64,000 bases of DNA from an uncultured delta proteobacterium (GTDB lineage Bacteria > Myxococcota_A > Polyangia > Polyangiales > Polyangiaceae): assembly GCA_963841435.1 (NCBI GenBank), contig CAWJCS010000001.1, positions 192,001 to 256,000 of the forward strand. The letters run 5' to 3'. Below are positions 37,082-41,680 of this stretch, piece by piece. The notes under the pieces were generated by a model. It saw only the letters and a list, made by a program, of their open reading frames with translations, was not told the origin of the DNA and did not search any database. The position numbers and the translations under genes are program-made. The first letter of the stretch is position 1. Each line of letters begins with the position of its first letter.

Positions 37082-37985
37082 CGCCGAGAGCCAGCCACGC
37101 GCTCTCGAAGTCGCGCGGCAGTGACGCGCGGACGCACACTGCCTCGGTGCCCAACGGGAGCTCGATTCTCTCTGCATGCAAGAAGACCCGCCCGAGGCCT
37201 AGCACGCGGCCGCCGTCGAGGCGGAGGCGCCGCGGGCCGCCGTAGGCCGGATCGCCGAGCAGCGGCACACCGGCGTGCGCCGCGTGTGCGCGGAGCTGAT
37301 GGGTCCGACCCGTCGTCGGGGTGAGCCGGACGAGCGCTGGTCGAGAGCGCTCGTCGGTGCGCCCGTCGAGCAGGGCTGGCGCGGCGCTGGCGAGCGTTTC
37401 GTAGGCCGTTTCGGCCGCGCGGGCGTCTCGCCCACCCACTTCGAAGCGACCCCGGGCGCCGCGACCGATCGGCGCCGACCAGCAGCCGACGCCCGGCTCC
37501 GGGGCACGGATCGTGAGCGCGAGGTAGCGCCGTCGGAAGCGGCCGGCGGCCCGTAGCTCGCCGATGCGCCGTCGCGCCGACTCGGTGGTCGCGAACGTGA
37601 CGACGCCGCTCACGCCAACGTCGAGCCGCGACAGCGCGTGGAGCGCCGAGATGGGCAGCCCGCGCGCCGCCGCCAGCCGGCCGAGGACACTCGCGCCGCT
37701 TCCCGCATGGTCGGGCTCGGTGGCGACGCCTGGCGGCTTGTCGATGAACACGAGGCCATCCCGCTCGAGCAAGATCGGCAGCGCCTCGGGCTCGACGCGT
37801 GCGGCGAAGATCTCGACGACGCTGCCGCTCTCGACCACGCGATCGACCTCGACGCGCTCGGCGTTGACGAACAGCCGCCCTTCGTCGAGGGCCGTGGTGG
37901 CACTGCCCCCGAAACGCGCGCAGAGCTCGGCGAGGGCGGCGGTCGAGCCCGCGGGGACGACGAAGCGCACGACGGGCTGCTTCAT
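37047..37985 (-). CDS. RluA-family pseudouridine synthase
   Basis: IDKPPG, SRLDVGVSGV (catalytic Asp), TGRTHQLRAH, LGDPAYG, FLHA. Confidence 0.9.
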   Translation of the reverse strand: MKQPVVRFVVPAGSTAALAELCARFGGSATTALDEGRLFVNAERVEVDRVVESGSVVEIFAARVEPEALPILLERDGLVFIDKPPGVATEPDHAGSGASVLGRLAAARGLPISALHALSRLDVGVSGVVTFATTESARRRIGELRAAGRFRRRYLALTIRAPEPGVGCWSAPIGRGARGRFEVGGRDARAAETAYETLASAAPALLDGRTDERSRPALVRLTPTTGRTHQLRAHAAHAGVPLLGDPAYGGPRRLRLDGGRVLGLGRVFLHAERIELPLGTEAVCVRASLPRDFESAWLALGGDGAPLREAAE

Positions 37986-38026
37986 CCGCGCGTCGCTTCA
38001 TCCGCGCGTCGCTTCATCCGCGCGTC
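37979..38026. repeat. Perfect tandem repeat, 16 bp x3 (GCTTCATCCGCGCGTC)
   Basis: Read directly; spans the junction between the upstream stop and the RluA-family start. Confidence 0.97.
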
Positions 38027-38357
38027 AAGTCGTGGCAGCTTCGGGGGTCTTTCCCGTCGCGCGGCGCACCAGCTCGACGAGCACCGGATCACTTGCGAGC
38101 TCGGCTTTGAGCGTCTCCTTCACGCTATCGAGCTGCTCGGCGCTCACACGCCCCGCAAGATGCGCGGTCGCTTCGCTGACGCGCGCGTCGAGGTACTGCT
38201 CGAGGCCGATCTCTCCGCGCTCGAGCCGATCGAGCGCGCCGCTCGGCTCCACCCCGGCCGTTTCGCCGACGCTAAAGCCGGTGTCGCCGCCGCCGCTCGG
38301 CGGCGTGCTCGAGGGCGGCACGCTGGGAGGCGCCTTGCCGATGCCGTCGATGCCCAT
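38025..38357 (-). CDS. Small hypothetical protein, disordered N-terminus plus helical bundle
   Basis: MGIDGIGK start, Pro/Ser/Gly tract, amphipathic helices; coding-like codon pattern. Confidence 0.75.
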   Translation of the reverse strand: MGIDGIGKAPPSVPPSSTPPSGGGDTGFSVGETAGVEPSGALDRLERGEIGLEQYLDARVSEATAHLAGRVSAEQLDSVKETLKAELASDPVLVELVRRATGKTPEAATT

Positions 38358-38424
38358 GACGAAATCCTACGCCGTTCGGGGGCGCGCTGCTACCCGGCCG
38401 AAAAAGGGGCGGGCTCTCGCGCGC

Positions 38425-38886
38425 TCAGCGGAAGTTCCCAATCGCGTTCTTCATCGTCTCGTGCCGGGCGCGGAGGATATTCGAGTACGCGGTGTACTGT
38501 CGGTTCTCGGCGCTGATGCGTTCCTGGAGCACGATGTAGTACATGTTCTTGTCGCTGTTCTGGTCGAGCATGCTCTCGACCTCGGGGCTCTGCGCGCCAC
38601 CGGGCGGGCTCGCGGTGGCGGGGTAGCCCTCGGGTGTCGTCGCGGGCGTGCCGCCGCCGAGCGCGCCGGCGCCGACGGCGGGCGTCGCGGTGGCGCGGAA
38701 GCCCGCCGCGAGAATCGGGCCGCCGGGCAGGCGCCGGACCACGGCCTCCGCGCTGCTCACGACCGCGCTCGCCCCCGCGCCGAGCACTGCCTGGAACGGG
38801 CGCGTGGGCTTTTCGGTCGTGCGGTTCGCGGTGGGGCCGGCCGCGATGAGCGGGCTCGGCCCCGTGACATCGATGCGAGTGGTCAT
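38425..38886 (-). CDS. Type III secretion needle/inner-rod-like small protein (putative)
   Basis: RBS GAAGGAG; C-terminus LQERISAENRQYTAYSNILRARHETMKNAIGNFR resembles the SctF/PrgI end. Confidence 0.6.
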   Translation of the reverse strand: MTTRIDVTGPSPLIAAGPTANRTTEKPTRPFQAVLGAGASAVVSSAEAVVRRLPGGPILAAGFRATATPAVGAGALGGGTPATTPEGYPATASPPGGAQSPEVESMLDQNSDKNMYYIVLQERISAENRQYTAYSNILRARHETMKNAIGNFR

Positions 38887-38979
38887 AGCGGGATCTCCTT
38901 CTCGGGGGGGGGGTCGGTCGCGCCCGATGCGAGTTGCGTGCGCCGCGGCCCGTGGAGGGTCGGATGGCGCGAACGGGCC

Positions 38980-39798
38980 TCAGAACTGACCGCTCACCGA
39001 GACCGCCCAGGGCCGCCTGTCGCCGGGGGGGATGAAGGTCACCTGGACGTTCTCGAGGTCCGACCGAATGAGCTCCTGCCGCGTGCTCGCGAGCCCTGCG
39101 ACCGTCACGAGCGCACCGGCGAGCTGACCGATGCCGTCCACCGCCAAGAAGGTGACGATCTGCACCTCCTTGACCGCGTTGCTCACGCATTTCTTCGCGA
39201 GCTCCACCGTGCTCGTCTTGCAGGTTTCGTAGGTGCGGCTGCCGATCGCACCCCAGGGGCCGACGACGGGCGCGGCGAGCCACGCCGTGCCGTTCTTGAA
39301 ACCCTCGACGGCGCCGAACGTGAGCGCACCCGCGTACGCGATGCCGAGACCCACCATCCCCGCGGTGACGAGGCCGCGTGCAGGTCGTTCGACGACCGTG
39401 TACCCGGGCGGCACGGGGAGCCCCTCGCGGTACGGCAGCACGGGCGCGCGCGGATCTCCGGGGATCGACGCTGCGGGCGCTTGTGGCGTGATGGGCGGCG
39501 GGGCCGCGGCGACGGGCGCGAGCGGCGGGGGTGCGGCGACGGGCGTCGGAGCGACCGCGGGGGCAGGCGCCTGTGGCTGTGCCGGCGCTTTCGGAGTCGT
39601 AGCGGGTGGGAGTGGCACGGCGCGGACGGGGGGTGACGGCGCGGGCCGTGCGGGCGCGGGCGCGGCCGCGGGGGCAGGCGCCGTTTGGCGGGGAGGCTCT
39701 TCCGGAAAGCTCGCCGTTGCTTGACCCAGGGCCGACGGCGCGACGGACGCGCAGCCGCCCGCGAGCCACCATCCCACCAGACGGTGATGCCTCCGCAT
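38980..39798 (-). CDS. Secreted/membrane Pro-rich hypothetical protein
   Basis: Signal-like N-terminus, Pro/Ala tract, PVPPGY motif, hydrophobic segments, terminal SVSGQF strand. Confidence 0.7.
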   Translation of the reverse strand: MRRHHRLVGWWLAGGCASVAPSALGQATASFPEEPPRQTAPAPAAAPAPARPAPSPPVRAVPLPPATTPKAPAQPQAPAPAVAPTPVAAPPPLAPVAAAPPPITPQAPAASIPGDPRAPVLPYREGLPVPPGYTVVERPARGLVTAGMVGLGIAYAGALTFGAVEGFKNGTAWLAAPVVGPWGAIGSRTYETCKTSTVELAKKCVSNAVKEVQIVTFLAVDGIGQLAGALVTVAGLASTRQELIRSDLENVQVTFIPPGDRRPWAVSVSGQF

Positions 39799-39854: not shown

Positions 39855-40814
39855 CTACAGGCCGAACCAGGGCGCGGGGTCGACCGTGTCGCGTCCCACG
39901 CGGATCTCGAAGTAGAGCCGCGGGCCCTTGCCCGTGTCGCCCACGGTGCCGAGTCTCGCGCCCGCTGCGATTTCGTCACCGACCTCAACGTCAATCGCGT
40001 CGAGGTTGGCGCTCACCGTGTAGTGGCGGCGGCCGTGGTCCAAGATGATGGTCTTGCCGTAGTCGGCATAGGTGTCGGCGAAAGCGACGCGCCCCGCGGC
40101 GACGCTCCGCACGACCGTGCCGAGCGGTGCACGCAGCTCGAGGCCGGGGCCCTCCGAGCTTGCGCGACGCGCCGGCTGGACCTCGGTGCGACCGGCGAGG
40201 GGAAACGGCAGTCGACCGCGTAAGGCCGCGAAGCCGACCGCCGTGAGCGTCGGATCCGCGGGGCCGACGGCGCCGTAGACGGCGGTGTGGTTGTCGCTCT
40301 GAAACGCCTGAGCGAACGCCTGCTCGCGCTCTTCGGCGCTACGCAGCGCCTCGGCGGCGCGCGAGAGCACGGCGCGCTCGTCCTCGAGCGTCGCGGCGCG
40401 AGCTCGCACGGCGTCGAGCTTCTTGGCGATGGTGAGCCGCTCCGCGGCGAGGCGCTTGCCGAGCGCGAGGTCCTCTTCGAGCCCGTGGTGGAGACGTTCG
40501 AGGCGTGCGGCGTGCTCGAGCAGGGCGTCGAAGCCCGAGCCGACGGGCAAAAGGCCCACCCTGGCGAGCGCGACGTAGGCGCGCCCGCGCGCCGTCAGCC
40601 GAGCGTCGGCAAGCTGACTCTCCTTACCGATCTCGCGCAGACGCTTCTCGAGCCGCCGGCCCTCGTCGTCGGCCGAACGCTGCAGGCGCTCGACGTCGTT
40701 GGCCGTCGGGGGACGGCTCTCGCCGGGCTCGGCCGGCGCCGCGCGCGACGCCGTCTGCCCCGTGGCCGTGGCGAGCGCGAGGGCGCCGAGCACGAGAGCC
40801 CGTTTCGTCTTCAT
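39855..40814 (-). CDS. envC: EnvC-like murein hydrolase activator (coiled coil + M23 domain)
   Basis: Signal peptide, coiled coil, LPFPLAG..VAAGRVAFA..YGKTIILDHG..LYFEIR..DPAPW; Zn ligands look degenerate; follows ftsX. Confidence 0.8.
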   Translation of the reverse strand: MKTKRALVLGALALATATGQTASRAAPAEPGESRPPTANDVERLQRSADDEGRRLEKRLREIGKESQLADARLTARGRAYVALARVGLLPVGSGFDALLEHAARLERLHHGLEEDLALGKRLAAERLTIAKKLDAVRARAATLEDERAVLSRAAEALRSAEEREQAFAQAFQSDNHTAVYGAVGPADPTLTAVGFAALRGRLPFPLAGRTEVQPARRASSEGPGLELRAPLGTVVRSVAAGRVAFADTYADYGKTIILDHGRRHYTVSANLDAIDVEVGDEIAAGARLGTVGDTGKGPRLYFEIRVGRDTVDPAPWFGL

Positions 40815-41680
40815 GTGGCCACGAAGCGGCGCAGGCTCACGAAGGCGGCGACGGCACCGAGCAGCGCCCCCGCGGCGATCGTCCCGAGCACGAGCGACCA
40901 CGGCAAGAACGTCGGTGCGACGCCGAACAACGCGACGAGCTGCGCATCGACGTGGCTATCGACCACCAAGAACAGGATGCCGCAGAGCCCGAGCGCGAGC
41001 GTCGCGCCAATCGCGCCCTGGGCCGCGCCCTCGATGACGAACGGGTCGCGCACGTACGAGTCCGTGGCGCCGACGAGCTTCATGACCTCGACCTCGATGC
41101 GCCGGCGTTGCAAGGACAGGCGAATCGTCGAAGAAACGACGCTGATCACCGCGGCGAGCACGATGAGCGAGAGCAGCCCCGCGGCGGCGACGCCGCCGCC
41201 GAGCAGTGATTCGAGTCGCTCCGTCCAGCCACCGTAGGTCTCGACGCTCGCCACGGCGGGTAGCGCGCCGAGCTGGGCCGCGATCTGCGACAGCCGTTCG
41301 GAGCTCACGTCCTTCTTCACGGCGACCTCGAGCGACGCTGGGAAGGCGTCGGCGGGCAGCGCGTCGAGCACGGGATCCTTGCCGGCCTGGGCCACCTCGC
41401 GCCGCGCGTCCTCCGGCGTGACGTGTCGCACCGAGACGACCCCGTCGGAGGCGCGGAGCGCGCGCTCGATGCGAGCAATCTGCTCGGCGCTCGCTTCGCG
41501 CGTGAGATAGACCGACGCGCGGCCGAGGCTTGCCCAGCGCGCGCGCAGATGGTCGACGTTCACGACGGCGAGCAGCGTCGCCGACAGGCAGACGAACGCG
41601 ACGGCGACGGAGAAGATGCCGAGCGCGTGCAGCCGCAGATCGTTCTTAGCGCCGCGGAGGGCTCGCTGAATGGGTCTCAT
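40811..41680 (-). CDS. ftsX: Cell division permease FtsX
   Basis: SSTIRLSLQRRRIEVEVMKLVGATDSYVRDPFVIEG. Confidence 0.92.
   Translation of the reverse strand: MRPIQRALRGAKNDLRLHALGIFSVAVAFVCLSATLLAVVNVDHLRARWASLGRASVYLTREASAEQIARIERALRASDGVVSVRHVTPEDARREVAQAGKDPVLDALPADAFPASLEVAVKKDVSSERLSQIAAQLGALPAVASVETYGGWTERLESLLGGGVAAAGLLSLIVLAAVISVVSSTIRLSLQRRRIEVEVMKLVGATDSYVRDPFVIEGAAQGAIGATLALGLCGILFLVVDSHVDAQLVALFGVAPTFLPWSLVLGTIAAGALLGAVAAFVSLRRFVAT

Follow-up and report, generated by a model that had tools for sequence, protein, structure and literature searches.

A gene pair encoding a needle- or rod-like candidate and a predicted anti-sigma factor, linked to scattered non-flagellar type III secretion genes in Myxococcota

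Introduction

Injectisome needles are made of SctF subunits (PrgI, MxiH, YscF; PF09392), helix-turn-helix hairpins of about 70–90 amino acids (aa), and the corresponding inner-rod proteins belong to the SctI class (YscI, PrgJ, MxiI; PF17001). In flagella, FliA and FlgM form a checkpoint in which the anti-sigma factor is exported on completion of the base; flgM and the flagellin gene are late flagellar genes, and the pairing of a sigma/anti-sigma couple with a filament subunit is known so far mainly from these organelles. Outside flagella, BtrA/BspR of Bordetella, which acts with the extracytoplasmic function (ECF) sigma factor BtrS, is an anti-sigma factor exported by a type III secretion system (T3SS). 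The locus described here is a pair of adjacent genes, encoding proteins of 153 and 110 aa, in a stretch of 64,000 nucleotides (nt) from an uncultured delta proteobacterium of the Polyangiaceae (assembly GCA_963841435.1, contig CAWJCS010000001.1, positions 192,001 to 256,000); this whole stretch is called the window below. For myxobacteria, the available portions of two papers describe the T3SS of Myxococcus xanthus (T3SS*, Myxo group) as needle-less and report no SctF, secretin or translocon homologue (PMC3459982, PMC10849154).

A preliminary description of the window had compared the pair with this needle-less system. The comparison holds in that both concern a non-flagellar T3SS in Myxococcota, and it is limited by the fact that M. 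xanthus belongs to another suborder: the Myxo group of Abby and Rocha 2012 comprises clustered loci in Cystobacterineae, whereas the core genes here are dispersed one by one over a Polyangiaceae-type genome, which also has a needle-like candidate. Our literature search found no publication joining "Myxococcota" with "SctF" and none describing the 153-aa family (supplements excepted).

We put the probability at roughly 0.55 that the pair forms a late operon belonging to a dispersed non-flagellar T3SS and specifies a needle- or rod-like subunit together with the anti-sigma factor of its FliA/WhiG-like sigma. The existence and conservation of the pair, the promoter motif that it shares with a SctI-like gene, its association with T3SS genes, both genomic and phyletic, and the interface predicted between the sigma and its partner were computed; all evidence presented here is computational. 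The genome under study is labelled G000 (7.78 Mb, 6 contigs) and comparison genomes carry other G-numbers; L-numbers denote loci and f-numbers families.

Results

A conserved gene pair

The pair and its upstream signals occupy the following window positions:

38425..38886, reverse strand, 153-aa open reading frame (ORF), from the ORF list, alignment A1 and an AlphaFold model
38025..38357, reverse strand, 110-aa ORF, from the ORF list, alignment A2 and an AlphaFold model
38895..38900, reverse strand, ribosome-binding site AAGGAG, read from the sequence, 8 nt ahead of the 153-aa start codon
38911..38941, reverse strand, promoter-like motif GCAAC-N15-CCGA with a sigma-28/FliA-like -10 element, ending 24 nt before the 153-aa start codon

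As the preliminary description had it, the 153-aa ORF ends in LQERISAENRQYTAYSNILRARHETMKNAIGNFR, and the 110-aa ORF begins MGIDGIGK and continues with a Pro/Ser tract. The strong ribosome-binding site claimed there was likewise accepted, because AAGGAG is seen 8 nt 5' of the 153-aa ATG.

Both ORFs are confirmed as real genes, beyond chance ORFs, because both belong to large families: a 90%-clustered collection contains 570 relatives of the 153-aa protein, which also matches 662 clusters at 50% identity with E ≤ 0.001 (108 of them with E ≤ 1e-10), and a profile search with the 110-aa family recovered 691 relatives, all of them unnamed proteins. Matches in the ESM Atlas were confined to unnamed Myxococcota clusters, with none among named clusters. 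A relative of the 153-aa protein is encoded in at least 543 of 599 candidate stretches from species-representative genomes. Loci were compared in the best 80 of these stretches, which come from metagenome-assembled genomes titled Polyangiaceae, Polyangia, Myxococcales, Sorangium, Labilithrix or similar. In 77 of these 80 Myxococcota loci the next gene after the 153-aa gene is the 110-aa one, and the remaining three end no more than 150 nt past the 153-aa gene. A similar pair was recognized by eye in five of seven loci from other families (L133, L135–L138).

Linkage and co-occurrence with type III secretion genes

Physical linkage of the pair to T3SS genes was found in G023, a deep-branching genome from another class of the phylum than G000. 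Its locus L133 reads, in order, 153-like gene, 110-like gene (137 aa, by eye), FliA/WhiG sigma (TIGR02479, E 2.6e-25, 89.5 bits), SctI (PF17001, E 3.2e-4), SctJ, an ORF, SctL/FliH, SctN, a YscO-like gene and SctQ.

Across a phylum sample of 251 genomes, the 153-aa family occurs in 48 and FHIPEP, the family of SctV, in 144. FHIPEP is present in all 48 carriers of the 153-aa family as against 96 of the 203 non-carriers. In f9, 4 of 17 genomes have the family, and these same 4 have FHIPEP; in f19 all 24 genomes carry both, and neither is found in f22 (0/20) or f30 (0/12). A family sample covered 41 genomes in 40 genera; its 20 carriers of the 153-aa family coincide exactly with the 20 genomes that have a SctI-like gene. 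YscJ_FliF matches in this sample were split by score into two classes, which we read as SctJ-like and FliF-like; the former is found in 19/20 carriers vs 6/21 non-carriers, the latter in 10/20 vs 8/21. Judging from the SctI-like, SctJ-like and FliF-like counts, the 153-aa family tracks injectisome-type genes, not flagella.

The genome under study has the corresponding machine genes. Single matches over cut-off were obtained for sctV, sctR, sctU, sctJ, sctT, sctS and sctQ, and sctN, a SctI-like gene and a sigma gene were located as well (coordinates in G000; reverse strand where stated):

C3:1004384-1005220, sctR (FliP), over cut-off
C3:1078366-1079655, reverse strand, sctN, by tblastn, 55% identity to the G023 ATPase
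C4:379196-379834, sctT (Bac_export_1), over cut-off
C4:664633-664953, reverse strand, SctI-like gene (P0391), weak match (PF17001 E 0.23; tblastn E 1e-4)
C5:614889-615677, FliA/WhiG-like sigma gene, best NCBIfam match TIGR02479 (E 1.4e-28, 100.2 bits, full-length alignment)
C5:1555685-1555888, sctQ (FliMN_C), over cut-off
C6:1049888-1051030, reverse strand, sctU (Bac_export_2), over cut-off
C6:1518708-1518923, sctS (Bac_export_3), over cut-off
C6:1570330-1572315, sctV (FHIPEP), over cut-off, best model hrcV/SctV
C6:1805923-1806762, sctJ (YscJ_FliF), over cut-off, a lipoprotein-like ORF of about 279 aa

These T3SS genes each lie at a separate place on contigs C3–C6. The genes inspected around sctV, sctR, sctU and sctJ are unrelated; a FIST-domain gene precedes sctV. 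The statement that the window holds no other T3SS gene is true for the nine families searched, every match being on another contig. The picture of an orphan gene beside a missing machine had to be given up: the core set is present, each core gene found is a scattered singleton, and the orphan state is the rule for every T3SS gene found in G000 because none lies with another. G033, a complete f19 genome, gives a similar picture: tblastn found no other T3SS gene within the 60-kb region of sctV. The linkage in G023, the co-occurrence with SctV and SctI-like genes and the promoter motif described below support the idea that the 153-aa protein is tied to a T3SS machine encoded elsewhere.

No FliF-class match was found in G000. 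Among its relatives, 18 of the 41 genomes of the window's family contain strong FliF-class matches (E ~1e-60, open frames of ~550 aa; e.g., G281:C19:28686-29201 and G291:C32:243335-243859), and some contain a second, canonical FHIPEP. Because of these matches, many relatives may encode flagella, which is unexpected for myxobacteria.

A sigma-28-like promoter and its sigma factor

A strict motif, G[CA]AAC-N15/16-[CG]CGA, precedes the 153-aa gene in 63 of 72 loci, 18–50 nt before the start, compared with 1.3% of random 160-nt windows of G000. Conservation upstream of the gene is limited to the two motif blocks, with their spacing fixed at 15 or 16 nt. The -10 element, (G)CCGA(y) in 63/72 loci and GCCGATAA in distant lineages (L136, L138), resembles that of the sigma-28-type reference, in which GCCGATAA stands ~15 nt after TAAA; the -35 element here is GCAAC, not TAAA. 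For the SctI-like gene, 19 of 21 loci show a relaxed form of the motif upstream, vs 7.2% of random 280-nt windows. A position weight matrix built without the window copy gave 80 sites in G000, where the SctI-like site ranked 16th and the window site 18th (G000:C1:230911-230941(-), 19.0 bits). Within 37900-39100 of the window, neither a sigma-70-type promoter nor an intrinsic terminator was detected.

A further motif copy of 19.0 bits (G000:C3:1002525-1002556(-)) lies 7 nt before a gene for a 369-aa lipoprotein-like protein, ~2 kb from sctR; this gene is a possible further member of the regulon.

The candidate sigma factor is best matched by the FliA/WhiG model; its 100.2 bits stay below the curated TIGR02479 cut-off of 189.6 bits. 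In 16 of 20 genomes the orthologue of this sigma gene is directly adjacent to the SctI-like gene, in 14 of them on the same strand.

The same promoter data also allow a reading in which the pair, one member and the anti-sigma factor, belongs to an alternative-sigma envelope regulon that has nothing to do with secretion, the T3SS associations being phylogenetic coincidence. The regulon may be a general envelope regulon, because lipoprotein-like or secreted-looking genes stand behind other sites in G000 where the motif scores high. In G000 the motif was not found before sctR, S, T, U, V, N, J or Q, nor before the sigma gene, a weak negative because some of the start coordinates used are starts of hidden Markov model (HMM) matches. 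The sigma is distributed more widely than the 153-aa family, occurring in 38/41 family genomes (E ≤ 1e-20), including genomes without that family, and the co-occurrence counts overstate independence because the genomes are related. Physical linkage of the pair to T3SS genes, moreover, comes from one genome, the sole member of its class in the sample, and a metagenome scan for close relatives of G023 found none. While these points weigh against a role in secretion, coincidence sits poorly with the G023 string of pair, sigma and sctI-J-L-N-O-Q, or with SctV in every carrier against fewer than every second non-carrier. In f9 and f1, presence of the family tracks T3SS genes, not flagellar FliF, and its sub-threshold Pfam matches (below) are needle and pilus families, not random helical ones. 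We regard the envelope regulon as distinctly unlikely.

The 153-aa protein and its likeness to needle and rod subunits

In alignment A1, which comprises 96 diverse members of the 153-aa family, a conserved N-terminal segment is joined by a variable Gly/Ala/Pro linker to a conserved C-terminal helix of 52 residues. The N-terminal segment covers about residues 27–63 of the 153-aa protein, with a nearly invariant F31 followed by a stretch of the G-A-E...L-P-G-G-P...A-A-V-R type. The terminal helix is the most conserved part, with Q121, S135, N136 and N151 invariant. The AlphaFold model has a mean predicted local distance difference test (pLDDT) score of 77.7 and helices at 31–52, 56–63 and 101–152, the last with pLDDT >90. 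The disordered N-terminus of the preliminary description survives in part: residues 1–30 lack secondary structure, but their pLDDT is 73–87, residues 27–63 are conserved, and low confidence sits in the linker (about 61–100, pLDDT 54–56).

The candidate shares several traits with SctF: a conserved C-terminal helix running to the last residue, an end of the hydrophobic-N-(I/F)-R type in the same alignment register, absence of a Sec signal, and association with T3SS core genes. In three f19 loci, a tetratricopeptide repeat (TPR) gene stands between the 153-like and 110-like genes, directly after the former, as yscG follows yscF. The Pfam family matched by most A1 members is PF09392, with 10 of 96 matching, all sub-threshold (best 17.3 bits, E 0.0054); HrpA pilin follows with four members and HrpF with one. 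In the five matches examined in detail, the last ~50 residues fall on model positions 13/22–71 of 71. For profile comparisons, the sequences of MxiH, MxiI and YscF came from annotated plasmids and were supplemented by MxiH relatives; A3 is an alignment of 23 SctF sequences. With hhalign, A1 matched A3 with P 0.0011 over 37 columns reaching both C-termini, and MxiH alone with P 0.015; the control comparison of the partner alignment A2 with A3 gave P 0.1, and MxiI gave no match to A1 (P 0.57). The resemblance of the C-terminal helix to the SctF needle helix thus stands as a weak match in the correct end-to-end register.

Other results count against assignment to SctF. The PF09392 gathering threshold of 29.4 bits is reached by none of the 96 members, the hhalign probability against A3 is low (20.6%), and the window's 153-aa and 110-aa proteins have no Pfam or NCBIfam match at E ≤ 1. 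A PDB sequence-profile search with A1 recovered no needle protein, its sole match being V-ATPase subunit D (E 0.28), and the Foldseek comparison with PDB proposed for the 153-aa model returned no match. At ~150 aa the family is about twice the length of SctF (~80 aa); it has an extra conserved N-terminal segment, a low-confidence Gly/Ala/Pro linker of ~40 residues replaces the short turn of the needle hairpin, and the helix-turn-helix hairpin of ~70–90 aa is not seen. Members are mostly encoded apart from machine genes, behind a sigma-28-like promoter. Membership in SctF is not established, because the sequence support is weak and no needle protein emerged from the PDB profile search or from Foldseek. 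A distant paralogue of 209 aa with a Sec-like signal peptide at its start (L140 7168-7797(-), G173) weakly matches the family's C-terminal helix (E 4.8e-5); judging from it, the module formed by this helix may have uses beyond type III export.

As for SctI, size range and class of terminal helix are similar, and against the local SctI-like alignment an N-terminal motif of the F-x-x-V-L type aligns weakly on its own (hhalign P 0.02). No A1 member matches PF17001 at E ≤ 1, and the same genomes hold a separate SctI-like gene, at the sctI position in G023.

Canonical SctF (PF09392) gave nothing over cut-off in 21 genomes (G000 and 20 relatives). In two other families of the same order, G013 and G017 encode a needle- or EspA-like protein of another kind (204 or 235 aa; L089 1492-2106(-); L092 1492-2199(-); PF09392 E 5e-4 in G013). 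Its gene adjoins a small TPR-like ORF and, by eye, a hydrophobic-hairpin protein resembling a translocon subunit. Longer paralogues of the 153-aa family, 225–305 aa with the same C-terminal helix and sometimes in tandem, occur in f19 genomes (L131 9958-10830; L141 10052-10969(-); L142 9065-9742, 9945-10664). They adjoin a gene for a ~700-aa lipoprotein-like protein and a ~720-aa gene, and one of them is preceded by GCAAC-N15-TTCGATAA.

A single helix with weak SctF similarity, at the end of a protein twice needle length with a long linker, could also belong to a member of the T3SS regulon that does not polymerise: a secreted effector, a ruler/gatekeeper-type regulator, or a tip/adaptor protein with a needle-like terminal helix. 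The helix behaves as a module, because the longer f19 paralogues end in the same C-terminus, and G023 has a separate SctI beside sctJ. The end of SctF needle proteins is, however, the filament-building part, and precisely this helix is the most conserved region of the family and matches needle proteins up to their last residues; a structural partner would also account better than an effector for the strict one-to-one co-occurrence with the SctI-like rod gene. We consider a non-polymerising role unlikely and favour a needle- or rod-like subunit.

The 110-aa partner and its predicted complex with the sigma factor

The AlphaFold model of the 110-aa protein combines a disordered, Pro/Gly-rich N-terminus (residues 1–38, pLDDT ~50) with four helices within residues 39–101 (pLDDT near 90). 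Searched with alignment A2 (40 sequences of the family), the PDB yielded GGA1 alone (E 1.8), and Foldseek vs PDB with the model yielded nothing at E ≤ 0.001.

A complex was modelled from three chains with our own alignments: A1 for the 153-aa protein, A4 for the sigma, and A2 for the 110-aa protein, the chain that was scored. This partner scored 0.90, the best of three controls 0.10; the mark applied had been attained in calibration by 58 of the 80 solved complexes and by two of the 110 mismatched pairs. Contact agreement between the runs is at least 90%, and the partner pLDDT at least 71. All listed contacts join 110-aa residues 35–107 to sigma residues 50–262, none lying outside the sigma chain, and they fall in or beside Sigma70 region 2 (41–112) and region 4 (202–254) and between them. 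In silico, the 110-aa protein accordingly spans regions 2–4 of a FliA-family sigma as FlgM does, and it is predicted to be an anti-sigma factor for the FliA/WhiG-like sigma.

Several features temper this prediction. FlgM (PF04316) is matched at E ≤ 1 by none of the 40 family members and none of eight distant partner-like proteins, nor was a match found in NCBIfam, and the protein models as a compact four-helix domain. A three-chain job with its own alignments is unlike the calibration set, and the pass may reflect likeness only, because sigma-28/FlgM complexes are among the solved structures.

In a control that kept the 153-aa chain but replaced the sigma chain, the score of the 110-aa partner was 0.00, with no contacts. 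Binding of the 110-aa to the 153-aa protein, as a needle chaperone would require, gains no support from this control, which is not evidence against such binding either.

The preliminary description took the 110-aa protein for a second secretion substrate. With the complex model it is better read as an anti-sigma factor; export would be compatible with its disordered Pro/Gly-rich N-terminus, by analogy to FlgM.

Local gene context

Upstream of the 153-aa gene, two further features were placed:

39855..40901, M23 EnvC-like gene, its match to the EnvC model below the cut-off
38980..39798, 272-aa ORF between envC and the 153-aa gene

Still further upstream are ftsX-like and ftsE-like ORFs, read from translations alone. 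Because of this neighbourhood, a stand-alone filament functionally tied to the cell-wall remodelling genes ftsE-ftsX-envC had been proposed, and EnvC-like and 272-aa genes do stand upstream in most Polyangiaceae-type loci. The ftsEX-envC synteny is confined to loci of this type, though, and the 153-aa family gene has different neighbours in f6, f11, f16, f19, f35 and f51. Between the 272-aa and 153-aa genes the promoter motif marks a transcription start of its own, and in several loci unrelated insertions lie on the other side. The link to ftsEX-envC is local synteny only, and a filament tied to these genes is extremely improbable.

The downstream neighbour of the 110-aa ORF is a gene for an RluA-family pseudouridine synthase. 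Read by eye, a 16-nt unit is repeated three times head-to-tail at 37980-38027 of the window, covering the 110-aa stop codon and the rluA start codon and duplicating the ATGAAG start region of rluA. Many related loci have a gene of ~857 aa between the 110-aa gene and rluA (L010 10875-13445; L017 10854-13433), which the window lacks.

Discussion

The late operon of a dispersed T3SS remains our preferred reading of the pair. In the mechanism that we infer, which extends to polymerisation, the export of either protein and the direction of regulation, the FliA/WhiG-like sigma would transcribe the operon from the sigma-28-type promoter GCAAC-N15/16-(G)CCGA. The 153-aa protein would be a helical subunit of the SctF/SctI class, its C-terminal helix packing into a rod or needle-like polymer atop the SctRST export gate and the SctI-like rod, and its unstructured, conserved N-terminal part may serve export and docking. 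The helical domain of the 110-aa protein would wrap sigma regions 2, 3 and 4 and keep the sigma inactive until the finished machine, as in the FlgM analogy, may export the protein via its disordered N-terminus and free the sigma.

The nearest regulatory parallel is the FliA/FlgM checkpoint. Shared with it are a sigma best matched by FliA/WhiG, a -10 element GCCGA(TAA), and an anti-sigma candidate with a disordered N-terminus and predicted contacts to several sigma regions, whose gene is co-transcribed with that of a filament-class subunit. The differences concern the machine, which is non-flagellar (hrcV/SctV as best model, a SctJ lipoprotein, no FliF-class match in G000, a family independent of FliF), the -35 element, GCAAC in place of TAAA, and the partner, a folded four-helix domain with no detectable FlgM homology. 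Bordetella BtrA/BspR-BtrS resembles the present case as an injectisome-linked sigma/anti-sigma pair in which export of the anti-sigma factor would couple secretion to transcription; its sigma is of the ECF class, and export is something we infer here.

A bolder version of this reading strikes us as doubtful when taken as a whole. It would hold that Polyangia and several other Myxococcota lineages have a non-flagellar T3SS that keeps the flagellar checkpoint, export of the 110-aa anti-sigma factor by the finished basal body turning on a late regulon of an inner-rod gene and a double-length needle/rod subunit; that the ancestral SctF, whose loss from Myxo systems Abby and Rocha inferred, has a surviving relative in the 153-aa family; and that at least ten unlinked single genes are held together by regulation alone.

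At its more modest strength, the late-operon reading offers, in its needle- or rod-like candidate, a testable handle on what the myxobacterial T3SS, described as needle-less and mechanistically unclear in PMC3459982 and PMC10849154, build. The predicted sigma/anti-sigma pair suggests how at least ten unlinked genes might stay in step. If true, the logic of exporting an anti-sigma factor on completion of the base would be extended from flagella to an injectisome-type system. Given the fully scattered layout, cluster- or locus-based T3SS detection would probably miss such systems, and scattered T3SS may for this reason be under-counted in soil and sludge Myxococcota.

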